In this document: positions 18,573 through 22,975 of the stretch, piece by piece
Layout of the letters: each line of letters opens with the position of its first letter
Numbering within the stretch: position 1 is the first letter of the stretch
Assembly: GCA_027348385.1 (NCBI GenBank)
Contig: DAIEPO010000003.1
Span: 1-43,098 of the forward strand
DNA length: 43,098 nt
Direction of reading: 5' to 3'
Source of the DNA: a bacterium
GTDB taxonomy: Bacteria; Patescibacteriota; Doudnabacteria; UBA920; VMFF01
The notes under the pieces: model-generated
What the model was told of the DNA's origin: nothing
Database searches by the model: none
What the model saw: the letters and a program-made list of their open reading frames with translations, nothing else
Translations under genes and position numbers: made by a program

Positions 18573-21395
18573 ATGATCAAGATCAGAGGCGCAAAACAGC
18601 ATAACCTAAAGAACATAAACTTGGATCTTCCAAGTAATAAGCTTATCGTAATGACAGGACTTTCCGGCTCGGGAAAGTCTTCTTTAGCGTTTGATACGAT
18701 CTATGCTGAAGGACAACGTAGATACGTTGAGTCTCTTTCAGCATACGCTAGACAGTTTTTGGGCTTGATGGATAAACCAGACGTTGAAAGCATTGAAGGT
18801 CTTTCTCCGGCAATTTCCATTGATCAAAAAAGCGCTTCACATAATCCTCGTTCAACAGTTGGTACTGTTACTGAGATATATGATTACTTACGTTTACTCT
18901 ATGCCCGAGTCGGTATACCGCATTGTCCTGTTTGTGGAAAAAAGATTTCCGGACAAACAGTTAGTCAAATGATTGATCAGATTTCCAACCTGCCACATGG
19001 CACCAAGATTATCCTAATGGCACCATTCATTAAAGACCAAAAGGGTGAGCACAAACATGTTTTGGAAGAAGCTAAAAAAGCAGGCTATGCCAGAGTCAGA
19101 GTAGATCACATTGTTATGGATTTAGACGAAGCTTTAAGATTAAATTTAGACAAAAAAAAGAAACACTCCATTGAAGTTGTCATTGACCGCATTACAGTTG
19201 ATAAAAATGAAAGAGGTAGACTTGCTGATTCCTTAGAAACAGCTTTAGAGCTTGGTGATGAAACTGCAATTGTTCAAACTGTTGATACAAACAAGGAAAT
19301 CTTACTTTCCCAGAAATTTGCATGTCCTCAAGGACACATGAGCATGCCAGAACTTGCACCAAGAAACTTTTCTTTTAATTCTCCGCATGGAGCATGTCCT
19401 GAATGTACAGGTTTGGGAACAAAATTAGAAATAGTTCCAGAGCTAGTCATTCCAAATCCAAAACTGACACTTGCAGAAGGCGCGATCAGGCCTTGGAGTA
19501 AGACCACTTCTCGTATTTCTTGGTATACCAGAATTTTACAGGCTGTTGCTGATGAGTATGGTTTTTCAATGGATCTGCCAATTTCTAAACTTCCTAAATC
19601 TGCTGTGGATATAATCCTACATGGAACAGGGGAGAAAAAGATTTCAGTAGAACATGGTGAGGATGATTTTGAATATGATTACAACACAACCTTTGAAGGA
19701 GTCATCCCAAACCTTGAACGTCGTTACAGAGAAACAGATTCAGATTACATGCGCAAAGAAATCGAAAACTATATGCGTATTACAGAATGTCCTGTTTGTC
19801 TTGGCAGACGATTAAAACCAGAAGCTTTAGCTGTGACAGTTGGTGAAAAGGGGATTGTTGATGTTTCCAAGCTAAGCATTGATGATGCTGATATTTTCTT
19901 CAGAGACTTAAACAAAAGGCTTTCTGAGAAAGACAAGAAAATATCATATCAGATACTAAAGGAAATTAGCGCCAGACTTTCCTTTCTAAAAGATGTTGGT
20001 CTAAACTATTTAACTCTTGATCGAAGCGCAGATACTCTTTCAGGCGGTGAAGCTCAACGTATTCGTTTGGCAACTCAGATTGGTTCTGGGCTAACAGGTG
20101 TTTTGTACATTCTTGATGAACCATCAATTGGTCTACATCAAAGAGACAATGACCGCTTACTCAAAACCCTTAAAGGTTTGAGAGACTTAGGAAATACTGT
20201 CATTGTCGTAGAACACGATCAAGACACCATTGAATCATCAGATTGGGTTGTTGATATTGGTCCAGGGGCTGGCAAACACGGTGGTGAAGTCATTGCCGAA
20301 GGAACCCCAACTCAAATTAAAAAGAATAAGAATTCCATAACTGGGCAATATCTTTCAGGGATTGAAAATATTGAGGTGCCAAAAAGAAGGCATCCGGGAA
20401 ATGGCAAAAAATTAAGCATCATTGGAGCAGAAGAACACAATTTAAAGAATATTAACGTTGAAATCCCACTTGGTAAGTTTGTTGTTTTAACCGGCGTTTC
20501 AGGTTCTGGAAAATCAACCTTGCTTAATGAAATTCTTGCTAAAGCTCTATCAAACTATTTCTACAATTCTAAAGAAGCGGTTGGTAAACACAAGAAACTC
20601 CAGGGTGTCGAACATATCGACAAGATCATCAACATTGATCAATCTCCGATTGGTAGAACTCCAAGATCTAACCCAGCAACATATACCGGAGTTTTCACAT
20701 ACATTAGAGATCTTTTTGCAGCCACACCTGAAGCAAAAATGCGCGGTTACAAAGCAGGCAGATTTTCTTTCAATGTAAAGGGTGGTAGATGCGAAGTTTG
20801 TGGTGGCGATGGTGTCATAAAGATTGAGATGCATTTTTTGCCTGATGTTTACGTTGCTTGTGAAGAATGTAAAGGCAAACGATATAACAGGGAAGCCTTA
20901 GAAATCCATTACAAAGGAAAAAACATTTCTGATGTTTTAGAAATGACAGTTGATGAAGCAAAGATTTTCTTCAAACACATCCCTTTGATTTACAGAAAAC
21001 TAGAAACTCTCTCAGAAGTTGGTTTAGGTTACATGCATTTGGGTCAACAAGCAACAACTCTTTCAGGTGGTGAAGCTCAGCGTATCAAACTTTCCTCAGA
21101 GCTTTCCAGAGCATCAACCGGTAGGACCCTTTACATCTTGGATGAACCTACCACAGGCTTGCACTTTGCTGATGTTAAACGATTGCTTTCAGTTCTAAAC
21201 AAACTTGTTGAAAAAGGAAACACAGTCGTAGTTATTGAACACAACTTAGATGTTATAAAAAGCGCAGACTGGGTGGTAGACTTAGGGCCTGAAGGCGGGG
21301 ACAAGGGTGGTGAACTAATCGCAGCTGGCACTCCTGAGGATGTTTCAAAGATAAAACGAAGTTACACCGGACAATACTTAAAAAAGATGCTTTAA
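18573..21395 (+). CDS. uvrA: Excinuclease ABC subunit A
   Basis: Two ABC ATPase cassettes ([25 protein letters not shown] twice) and zinc fingers; start at ATG 18573. Confidence 0.98.
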
Positions 21396-21456
21396 AACAA
21401 AACCCCGCTTACGCGGGGTTTTTGATCGGTTGACTTTGAGCCACCGTTTCACCAGT
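21395..21456 (-). ncRNA. Putative antisense sRNA 2, complementary to tRNA-like RNA 2
   Basis: Promoter TTGACT(21491-21486)-17-TAAATT(21468-21463); 5' ACUGGUGAAACGGUGGCUCAAAGUCA pairs with the loop arm and 5' segment of 21496-21568. Confidence 0.65.
21399..21422. terminator. Bidirectional terminator (uvrA / antisense sRNA 2)
   Basis: AAAACCCCGC-TTAC-GCGGGGTTTT. Confidence 0.85.
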
Positions 21457-21462
21457 AAATTT

Positions 21463-21491
21463 AATTTAGCTCAAATGCTTTAAAGAGTCAA
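21463..21491 (-). promoter_or_regulatory. sigma70 promoter for antisense sRNA 2
   Basis: TTGACT-17nt-TAAATT starting 4 nt after the CCA of the tRNA-like RNA. Confidence 0.65.
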
Positions 21492-21495
21492 CCTG

Positions 21496-21568
21496 TGGTG
21501 GAGATGGCGGGAATCGAACCCGCTAGATGCCGCTGGTGAAACGGTGATCTCGCTACCAAGCCACCCCC
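21496..21568 (-). ncRNA. Non-canonical tRNA-like RNA 2 (Ala-type acceptor, CAC-centred loop)
   Basis: GGGGGTG-GCTTGGTAGCG-AGATCACCGT-TTCACCA-GCGGCATCT-A-GCGGG-TTCGATT-CCCGC-CATCTCC-A-CCA: G3:U70, canonical T arm, CCA. Confidence 0.78.
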
Positions 21569-21642
21569 ATATTTGTTTCTCTACTAGTTAATACTCTAAG
21601 TTGATTAACTAATCGTTAAAAAGATATTAAAAAAAGGTGTAT

Positions 21643-21669
21643 TTAGCACTTGACAGGCTTGAGTGCTAA
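21643..21669. promoter_or_regulatory. CIRCE element 1 (HrcA operator) overlapping -35 TTGACA
   Basis: TTAGCACTT-N9-GAGTGCTAA vs consensus TTAGCACTC-N9-GAGTGCTAA. Confidence 0.92.
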
Positions 21670-21683
21670 ATATTAAAATGTTT

Positions 21684-21710
21684 TTAGCAAACGACTTAAA
21701 AGAGTGCTAA
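21684..21710. promoter_or_regulatory. CIRCE element 2 abutting the hrcA start codon
   Basis: TTAGCAAAC-N9-GAGTGCTAA. Confidence 0.85.
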
Positions 21711-22442
21711 ATGACTGAAAAAAAGCCTTTAAACATTACTCCTAGACAAGCCAAGATCCTAGCGGCCATAGTTAGGGAGTATTCAAATACCTCAGAACCT
21801 GTTAGTTCTGAAGAAATAAGCTCAAAATACAAGCTGGATATTTCTTCAGCAACCATCCGTAATGAGATGATGGCTTTAGAAAGAAATGGATTTCTGGGGC
21901 AGCCACATACTTCAGCAGGCAGGGTGCCAACAGACCTTGGCTATCGTTACTTTGTAAATGAGTTAATGAAGCGTTTTGAGCTTTCCTTGAAAGAACAACA
22001 TGCTTTAAGGGAGCAGCTTGGCAAGCTCCAGCAACAGCATCAGGAGATAGGCAAGAACATTGCCAGATTGCTTGCAGAAAAAACAGATCAAGCAGCTTTT
22101 GCGCTTTTACCAGAAGAAACTTCAGCCAGTGGTCTTTCAAATATCTTGCAACATCCAAAGTTTGACCAAAGAGATGTTGTTGAAGTAGTCCAGTTCTTTG
22201 AAGATATTGATGAATATGCAGATCAGATGTTAAGCGATTTCTTTAAAGAAAGACCAGCAGCATTAATTGGTAAAGAGCACCATTTAGCACCAATTAAAAA
22301 TTACTCTTTGATTGTTTCTAAGGTTGAACTACCAACAGGAGAGCGCGGATTGATAGGGATAGTCGGACCAAAATCCATGCGCTATGACAAAAATATTAGT
22401 TTAGTAGAATATTTCGCAAAATTTTTAAGTACAGGAGAATAA
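21711..22442 (+). CDS. hrcA: Heat-inducible transcription repressor HrcA (short form)
   Basis: EPVSS, SSATIRNEM, QPHTSAGRVPTDLGYRYFV, GIVGPKSMRY. Confidence 0.93.
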   Translation: MTEKKPLNITPRQAKILAAIVREYSNTSEPVSSEEISSKYKLDISSATIRNEMMALERNGFLGQPHTSAGRVPTDLGYRYFVNELMKRFELSLKEQHALREQLGKLQQQHQEIGKNIARLLAEKTDQAAFALLPEETSASGLSNILQHPKFDQRDVVEVVQFFEDIDEYADQMLSDFFKERPAALIGKEHHLAPIKNYSLIVSKVELPTGERGLIGIVGPKSMRYDKNISLVEYFAKFLSTGE

Positions 22443-22444
22443 CT

Positions 22445-22975
22445 ATGGATGAACAACAAATATCAGCAGTAGGTAGCGGTGAGATAACCATTGAGCAGCT
22501 GCAGACTGAGCTATCCGATGCACTAAAGCAAGCCGAGGATAATCTTTCTGGATGGAAGAGAACCCAAGCTGATTTAGAAAACTACCGTAAAAGAAAAGAG
22601 GCTGAAGGAGCAGAGCTCGTACAATTTGGTAAACAAGCAGGTTTTGTTCAAATCTTACCAATTCTAGACTCTCTGCAAATGGCCATGATTCACGCACCTG
22701 AAATATCAGATGAGAAATACCAGAGCTTTAAAAACGGACTTGATGGTATTGTGAAGCAAATAGATGTAGCAATAATTGCCATGGGCATACAAAAGATTGA
22801 AGCAGTCGGAAAAAAGTTTGACCCGAATATACACGAAGCAATCAAAGAAGTGGCAGGAGATGAAGACGGTTTGGTTGTAGAACAATACCAAACTGGTTAC
22901 ATGCTACAAGGAAAGCTTTTAAGACCAGCGCAAGTAGCAATTTCAAAAAAAGATAATTCAAAAATCAGTAATTAA
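22445..22975 (+). CDS. grpE: Nucleotide exchange factor GrpE
   Basis: [34 protein letters not shown]. Confidence 0.96.

Follow-up and report, generated by a model that had tools for sequence, protein, structure and literature searches.

What does a bacterium do with a gene that has both ends of a transfer-messenger RNA (tmRNA) but no message between them? The question is raised by a 73-nt element at positions 21496-21568, minus strand, of a 43,098-nt stretch of DNA (contig DAIEPO010000003.1 of GenBank assembly GCA_027348385.1; the whole stretch is here called the window) from a member of the Doudnabacteria, in the Candidate Phyla Radiation (CPR, Patescibacteria). A first-pass annotation had read the element as a miniature tmRNA and had proposed either (a) an alanine-charged transfer RNA (tRNA) that mistranslates GUG codons or (b) a stand-alone tRNA-like domain (TLD) that titrates SmpB or accepts stalled peptides without tagging them; a scar of integration into the tmRNA gene, ssrA, was considered as well.

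Three features beyond that annotation bear on the question: the element is one of a family of several copies, next to each copy lies the gene of an antisense small RNA private to it, and a normal ssrA is present in relatives. Our best explanation, to which we give a probability of roughly 0.4, is that the locus encodes an antisense-restrained, alanine-accepting mimic of the tmRNA TLD that may work like an RNA-only toxin-antitoxin pair. The genome of the window (G000) is a 555-kb assembly in 50 contigs and is 89% complete.

The tRNA-like RNA and its family

Read on the minus strand, the element is indeed built as first described, with tmRNA-like ends and a hairpin in place of the message. The acceptor stem of 7 bp pairs GGGGGUG with CAUCUCC, includes a G3:U70 wobble and is followed by A73-CCA. 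The D region (GCUU-GG-UAG-CGA) has no stem, the T arm (GCGGG/CCCGC) carries the loop UUCGAUU, and the minimum free energy fold of the arm is a bulged hairpin, AGAU-CA-CCGU/GCGG-C-AUCU, with the loop UUCACCA. In a permissive local search the best family was the Rfam tmRNA model RF00023 (38.7 bits, E 4.5e-14), with 18 nt at the 5' end and 29 nt at the 3' end aligned without gaps and 26 nt standing in place of 326 model positions. The tmRNA model outscores the tRNA model in clan competition for this copy, while other paralogs have tRNA-like D hairpins. The score is below the RF00023 gathering cut-off of 47 bits, and Rfam at gathering thresholds (29 bits for RF00005) returned over the whole window only the four ordinary tRNAs that ARAGORN called; neither program reported the element.

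The terminal 28 nt are identical at 25 positions to the tmRNA of the genus, the 3' strand of the acceptor stem and the T stem being the same throughout, so that the annotated likeness of the 3' end to tmRNA held. The element departs from that tmRNA in the T loop (three positions), in the acceptor stem (one position) and across the whole D region. The 5' spacing, also given as tmRNA-like, fits the Rfam consensus but is unlike that of the genus's own tmRNA (GGGGAUG-CC-GG-AUUUU-GAC). Criteria for a canonical tRNA fail on the missing D stem and on an arm stem that is paired at only 56-63% in a fixed register across the family. There is also no mRNA-like domain with resume codon, tag frame, stop and pseudoknots. 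The element agrees with the TLD-only class of tmRNA ('Standard, no CDS', where CDS is coding sequence) in having about 65-80 nt, both tmRNA ends and no tag frame.

Folded alone, the 73 nt are only modestly better than shuffled sequences (z -2.03; 9 of 200 shuffles equally good), and it is comparison within the family that argues for a real RNA. The tmRNA model finds four further copies in G000 (21-31 bits), all ARAGORN-negative, 71-73 nt long and with G3:U70, which brings the loci to five: C33:21496, C33:1844, C11:39297, C2:382 and C22:45037. A covariance model of these five copies (R1, biased towards the genus) gives the element 80 bits, finds 3-7 copies in each of four same-genus genomes, and has members in G009, G020 and G028 as well; the family thus extends beyond the genus to other genera and to other families. 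Thirty-three loci were compared; as these include one exact duplicate, the covariation alignment holds 32 sequences from 8 genomes. In this alignment the acceptor stem is 98.7% paired with four of its seven pairs changed on both sides, the T arm is 99.4% paired, G3:U70 is kept in 32/32 members, and G1-C72, G2-C71 and G3:U70 are essentially invariant.

These comparisons upheld the annotation's description of a message-less TLD look-alike with alanine identity, through the model alignment of both ends, G3:U70 and A73. Alanyl-tRNA synthetase should charge the RNA, given G1-C72, G2-C71, the G3:U70 wobble, A73, a usually encoded CCA and the T arm. The gene at 21496-21568 (-) is thus best described, from its sequence, the Rfam and R1 models and covariation, as that of an alanine-type, tmRNA-TLD-like RNA. 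Its probable promoter region (21586-21620, minus strand) contains a block, TTAAyGA .. TTAAT .. GAGTATwwA, that most same-genus paralogs share on reading of their flanks. Three metatranscriptome runs from the same study yielded nothing over 20500-22500, which bears on expression in neither direction.

A private antisense RNA for each copy

Immediately downstream on the same strand, a second gene is predicted. Its sigma-70-type promoter, TTGACT-17-TAAATT (21463-21491, minus strand; 9/12 in the promoter scan), starts 4 nt past the CCA end of the tRNA-like RNA. The predicted transcript of about 60 nt (21395-21457, minus strand) consists of an antisense segment, a short tail, a terminator hairpin and a U run; with its predicted ends, the 63-nt RNA folds at -26.1 kcal/mol (z -4.2), which none of 200 shuffles equals. 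Across the family its length is crudely estimated at 45-100 nt. The terminator, CCCCGC-loop-GCGGGG flanked by A and T runs (21396-21424), is bidirectional by sequence and fold and is shared by uvrA on the plus strand and the small RNA on the minus strand; a simple terminator scan called none in 21330-21720, though the hairpin and U run are plain in the fold.

The antisense segment at the 5' end of the small RNA (21441-21455, minus strand) begins 7 nt past the -10 box and has 15 nt of contiguous complementarity to the arm of the tRNA-like RNA, where the docking part (21533-21547, minus strand) comprises the 5' strand of the hairpin and the 7-nt loop. The same relation holds at all 33 loci, where a contiguous cognate match of 12-18 nt lies +33 to +42 past the RNA; shuffled flanks give a mean of 7.5 (maximum 13) and non-cognate pairs a mean of 7.9. 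In the alignment, 14 of the 15 pairs in the helix between the two RNAs (columns 24-38 with 119-133) vary on both sides, and pairing holds in 93.6% of cells, compared with 36-46% when the partner is slid, and none of 500 shuffles reached the observed values. The arm's own hairpin averages -5.0 kcal/mol (0.0 in one copy) and the duplex -26.1 kcal/mol. The loop keeps U33 and the 3' CA, which fits a U-turn recognition loop for antisense pairing, a device familiar from the antisense-RNA literature. This covariation establishes, at the level of sequence, that the predicted small RNA pairs with the arm, along its 5' strand and its loop of U-turn type, in a 12-19-bp duplex private to each copy. Within G000 the own partner is the only strong match of an arm, and the small RNAs have no other target there at up to 2 mismatches, in an assembly that is 89% complete. 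The small RNA of G069 carries a second segment, directed against the 3' strand of the arm.

That the small RNA has a separate gene is indicated by its signals. The -35 and -10 boxes score 8-12 of 12 in 33/33 loci (mean 9.85; 6.6 in shuffled spacers), and at each locus the -10 box ends 3-8 nt ahead of the antisense segment. The five loci of G000 follow one layout: promoter-like block, tRNA-like RNA, a TTGACx box that begins at the CCA end or a few bases past it, about 17 nt, a TAnnnT box, antisense segment, tail and terminator. A different layout occurs in G070, G119 and records titled Peribacteria and Gracilibacteria, where a terminator stands directly 3' of the tRNA-like gene and the opposite strand carries, convergent with it, a promoter, 5-6 nt, a 15-19-nt antisense segment, tail and terminator. 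Since the unit of promoter, antisense segment and terminator recurs on the opposite strand in these other CPR lineages, we take the small RNA to be an independent gene.

The second copy in the window, a paralogous RNA at 1844-1914 (-), is presumably the one called tRNA-like RNA 1 in the first-pass annotation. It scores 63.4 bits with R1, is ARAGORN-negative and has G3:U70, a D hairpin with a 3-nt loop, the arm loop UUCGACA and the T loop UGCAAAU in place of UUCGAUU. The antisense segment of its partner lies at 1792-1806 (-), with 15 nt of complementarity, behind the promoter TTGACA-16-TAAAAT (11/12).

At three loci (L061, L063 and L067, in G028 and G020) short inverted repeats surround the -10 box, GUGCGU/GCGCAU, GUGUAU/GUACAC and AUGCAU/GUGCAU, with G:U-compatible changes between paralogs. 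The repeats suggest either an operator or a hairpin formed in RNA when transcription reads through. A promoter invertible at the DNA level, with inverted repeats on its two sides, was also considered and rejected: the conserved tRNA-like gene would not survive the inversion, and the mismatches, as read, are those that G:U pairing on the RNA strand would allow, a point that is biased because the duplex finder allowed only G:U mismatches.

Competing readings of the module

Any function in ribosome rescue has to be set beside the ordinary machinery. A canonical tmRNA (384-385 nt, 130-134 bits, 19-aa tag) is present in 4/4 same-genus genomes, the tmRNA model exceeds its cut-off in 36 of 41 sampled relatives, and G020 and G028 also have a canonical copy beside their modules; the idea that the miniature RNAs replace a lost tmRNA was ruled out by these co-occurrences. 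No tmRNA over the cut-off was found in G000 by RF00023 or ARAGORN, which at 89% completeness is probably an assembly gap. ARAGORN finds 34 tRNAs in that genome, none for His, Ile or Phe, again probably for want of completeness. The SmpB gene of G000 is intact (157.6 bits), and RNase III is encoded in 5/5 genomes. RqcH-type alanine tailing was ruled out, the NFACT_N domain being over its cut-off in 0/5 genomes, and an ArfB-like gene was not found in 5/5, each of which has only two long open reading frames (ORFs) with an RF-1 domain. With neither backup detected in these five genomes, interference with trans-translation should matter. The 73-nt RNA may bind SmpB and enter stalled ribosomes, and the first-pass annotation's second hypothesis, in which a TLD on its own would titrate SmpB or take over peptides untagged, is plausible.

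The reading we favour extends that hypothesis to a multi-copy, two-gene RNA unit of the CPR. The first gene would yield a stable RNA of 71-73 nt that has kept no more of a tRNA or tmRNA than its upper half, lacking a real anticodon arm and a message; the second, with its own near-consensus promoter and terminator, would yield the small RNA, complementary at its 5' end to that weak arm. The duplex might hold the alanine acceptor inactive or mark it for cleavage by the encoded RNase III. If the presumably short-lived partner were lacking, the free RNA would be alanylated and could compete with the real tmRNA for SmpB, EF-Tu and stalled ribosomes, so that rescue would be blocked or short-circuited. 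The module would then work like a type I toxin-antitoxin pair, with an RNA and not a peptide as effector. As context, Hudson et al. 2014 (PMC4131195) state, citing Mao 2009, that tmRNA is strongly inhibited by an artificial molecule consisting of the TLD alone, perhaps through titration of SmpB.

Several points weigh against this reading. According to the same source text, SmpB titration holds 'whether or not chargeable', which would leave the invariant alanine identity unneeded for simple titration. The modules sit between housekeeping genes and not in mobile or defence islands. In the same-strand layout the spacers, as read, show no terminator to separate the two genes, and transcription of the tRNA-like RNA should then continue into its own antidote; the centroid fold of the 174-nt co-transcript pairs the arm with the antisense segment. 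Some trailer hairpins appear to co-vary (read from the flanks, with no formal count), which would suit an obligate complex or a processing role equally well. As for the duplex, in full-length tmRNA the rest of the molecule sits on the corresponding helix and does not block entry into the ribosome, so that a bound partner need not inactivate the RNA, and the arm-antisense duplexes are shorter than classical RNase III substrates.

Among the alternatives, the one we weigh first makes the RNA a dedicated non-ribosomal alanine donor for a tRNA-dependent transferase of the FemAB family, as used for cell-wall bridges, with the partner keeping the RNA off the ribosome or tuning its level. A FemAB-family gene is present in 5/5 genomes tested (in G000 at C22:32210-32791, plus strand), and conservation of the RNA is limited to the acceptor and T half. 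The 1844 paralog type, with T loop UGCAAAU and no GG in the D loop, resembles the staphylococcal cell-wall tRNA-Gly species, in which UGC stands where T-psi-C is usual. However, the FemAB gene adjoins no module, in the 21496 copy the T loop is canonical and the D loop like that of tmRNA, and a donor role leaves unexplained both the 5-7 copies with private partners and the presence or absence of modules at the species level; we consider it unlikely. Alanyl-phosphatidylglycerol synthase, searched for in five genomes, was found in 1/5 and in none of the genus.

The weakness of the arm hairpin beside the strength of the duplex implies that most molecules should be in the complex, and the two RNAs may accordingly be an obligate pair: a mini-tmRNA assembled in trans, in which docking rebuilds a P2-like helix, the tail of the small RNA serves as scaffold, very short template or stop signal, and each cell has several alternative rescue RNAs. 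Co-transcription in the same-strand layout agrees with this, as do two readings of the tails, namely a UAA or UAG just ahead of the terminator in most of them and, in one subtype, a frame F-R-x-L-x-stop kept in three genomes. Two-piece tmRNAs joined by base pairing, with tags down to 2 aa, are on record (PMC11915505). The tails nevertheless speak against a template. A frame that starts with GCN and has a stop occurs in just 9/33 of them; the frame of the 21496 copy (AQSQPIKNPA-stop) is lost in its G001 ortholog and that of the 1844 copy is shifted in its own; none resembles the tmRNA tag of the genus; and stop-like triplets are expected by chance, because the flanks of terminators are A-rich. 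A tag reading frame in the tail was rejected on the 9/33 count and its lack of conservation in orthologs. The obligate complex as a whole seems to us improbable, and the narrower proposal, that the modules are split tmRNA paralogs assembled in trans and that the stalled ribosome takes in the tail of the small RNA as a minimal template or as a signal to stop, slightly more so.

The roles may also be reversed, with the small RNA as a working regulator and the tRNA-like RNA as its sponge or as a trans-acting, T-box-like sensor of alanine charging. The strong promoters of the small RNAs would suit a regulator, and many arm loops read ACCA like the 3' end of a tRNA, so that the UGGU of the small RNA could touch ACCA ends. 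Yet not every loop has ACCA, and the partner co-varies with the loop that is present; the arms match no other site in the 89% complete genome; past the terminator of the small RNA there is only the 3' end of the convergent gene (5/5 loci); and no T-box match was obtained at gathering thresholds in the window or, with E<=10 allowed, in the 501 nt that surround the element. We hold this reading to be distinctly improbable.

The GUG mistranslator, hypothesis (a) of the first-pass annotation, fares much worse. G3:U70 and A73 predict alanylation, and the arm does end in a 7-nt loop with U33 and the triplet CAC, a Val anticodon. The triplet, however, varies among apparent orthologs and paralogs (CAC, UAC, UAU, UGC, CGA, UGA and CGU): it is CAC in G000 and UAC in G001 for this type, UAU, UAC or CAC for a second and UAC, UAU or UGC for a third, orthology being assigned by sequence type and, for the 21496 locus only, by synteny. 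A dedicated reader of GUG is unlikely, since its triplet changes among apparent orthologs. Position 37 is C and not a purine, the arm stem is weak and irregular, a D stem is lacking, the window holds a normal tRNA-Val(CAC), and the loop appears to be selected to match the partner RNA, with which it co-varies. We give the hypothesis very little credence.

A functionless ssrA remnant left by island integration or internal deletion, as the near-identity of the 3' ends and the frequent use of tmRNA genes as integration sites (for the latter, PMC11915505) might suggest, can be dismissed with near certainty: the 3' end is not identical to that of ssrA, both ends are present with a complete 5' strand that pairs and co-varies, the whole 5' part is conserved, each of the 5-7 copies per genome has its own promoter, the stems and partners co-vary across at least three CPR classes, and the real ssrA lies elsewhere in relatives.

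Setting, precedents and meaning

All five modules of G000 are convergent with the next housekeeping gene (uvrA, trxB-like, parB, pnp or rpoC) and end at a bidirectional terminator shared with it, the flanks being trxB-like/efp, uvrA/hrcA, M50 peptidase/parB, pnp and rpoC/pyridoxal-phosphate enzyme. The terminators are alike in some pairs of paralogs (C11 with C2; 1844 with C22). No protein gene accompanies the modules in the flanks of these five loci, and in the interval from uvrA to hrcA the ORF list is empty of small genes (60 aa or longer). At the uvrA-hrcA position the module is present in G000 and G001 and cleanly absent, as an indel of about 205 bp, in G002 and G003, in which the hrcA operator comes directly after the same uvrA terminator; in G004 the spot is occupied by about 2.7 kb of other DNA. 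The indel, at 21406-21625 when compared with L108, L109 and L110/L113, shows no target-site duplication beyond a T run. Next to it, at 21645-21679 (+), an inverted repeat like CIRCE (controlling inverted repeat of chaperone expression), TTAGCACTTGACA..GAGTGCTAA, overlaps an 11/12 promoter ahead of hrcA-grpE-dnaK.

Beyond the relatives already named, R1 found ARAGORN-negative members in G069, G070 and G119 among 151 sampled genomes of the phylum, and an exact-pattern search of 401 genomes added G292, G238 and G413. Beyond the order, however, such searches return mainly ordinary tRNA-Ala genes (19 of 26 loci with the model, 20 of 25 with the pattern), and the phylum-wide frequency is therefore only a lower bound. 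A subtype pattern gave 11 stretches in a species-level genome collection, all but one titled as CPR. The exception, L153:3384-3457 (+) in an Alphaproteobacteria-titled metagenome-assembled genome, is a 74-nt G3:U70 RNA with the same D region, GCAGGTTCGCG, and a long GC-rich hairpin; neither strand showed an antisense partner within 200 nt. The L085 copy (G119:C8) likewise gave no cognate antisense; about 45-85 nt downstream of it lie two partial copies of the 3' end of the RNA (CCATGGG.. and GGTCCACCA) that resemble remnants of an attachment site.

The closest relatives of the tRNA-like RNA on record are message-less tmRNAs. Nawrocki, Petrov & Williams 2025 (PMC11915505) give nine 'Standard, no CDS' sequences, mycobacteriophage DS6A, Mallomonadaceae plastids and mitochondria, and jakobid mitochondria are also carriers of TLD-only tmRNA (PMC4131195; PMC11915505). 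Like these, the RNA described here is an alanine-accepting TLD of 65-80 nt that has no tag frame and is expected to meet SmpB. It differs in being multi-copy (5, and 3-7 in relatives), chromosomal and accompanied in relatives by a full tmRNA. Moreover, each copy has a private antisense gene, the arm is a docking site and not a simple cap, and some paralogs differ further by a true D hairpin and by a T loop that is not canonical.

In organization the module rather resembles type I toxin-antitoxin families such as hok/Sok and Ibs/Sib, which are known for several copies with private specificity, a strong antisense promoter and gain or loss between species. The module shares with them adjacent genes, a short antisense RNA with cognate-specific pairing and a strong promoter, specificity private to each paralog, variable presence, and probably recognition through a U-turn-type loop followed by strand invasion. 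Here, though, the target would be a presumably aminoacylated tRNA-like RNA in place of the mRNA of a toxic peptide, the toxin is putative, and the genes mostly do not overlap.

With the two-piece (permuted) tmRNAs of alpha- and beta-proteobacteria and cyanobacteria (RF04321, RF01849-51) the module has in common an acceptor RNA base-paired to a second RNA, both processed from neighbouring sequence; in the present case the acceptor stem lies within one RNA, the second RNA has neither a conserved tag frame nor pseudoknots, and the match of the element to RF04321 is weak (22.5 bits) and off-register. T-box leaders (RF00230) likewise read the anticodon-loop region of a tRNA-shaped partner by pairing; the pairing here covers 12-19 nt including one strand of a stem, not a 3-nt specifier, and there is no stem I platform, T-box sequence or downstream gene on that strand. 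A tRNA-like RNA with a dedicated, private antisense partner appears to be undescribed: none was met in the literature searched; the taxon tables of 'no CDS' forms in PMC11915505 might include relatives of the family.

Being invisible to ARAGORN and to the Rfam cut-offs, these genes mean that annotations of CPR genomes miss 5-7 genes per genome, which might be mistaken for tmRNA fragments, integration scars or pseudo-tRNAs. The strong covariation between the two RNAs (14 of 15 pairs) offers a clean case for studying how pairing specificity diversifies among paralogs. On the split-tmRNA reading, a cell of 0.6 Mb would run several differently programmed rescue RNAs beside its classical tmRNA. If the favoured reading is true, a tRNA mimic that can be aminoacylated and is gated by an antisense RNA of its own would be a new RNA-RNA module in the least understood large branch of bacteria, possibly an RNA-only addiction or defence system with a tRNA-like effector, and the modules may control, or poison on demand, the essential step of ribosome rescue in minimal cells.

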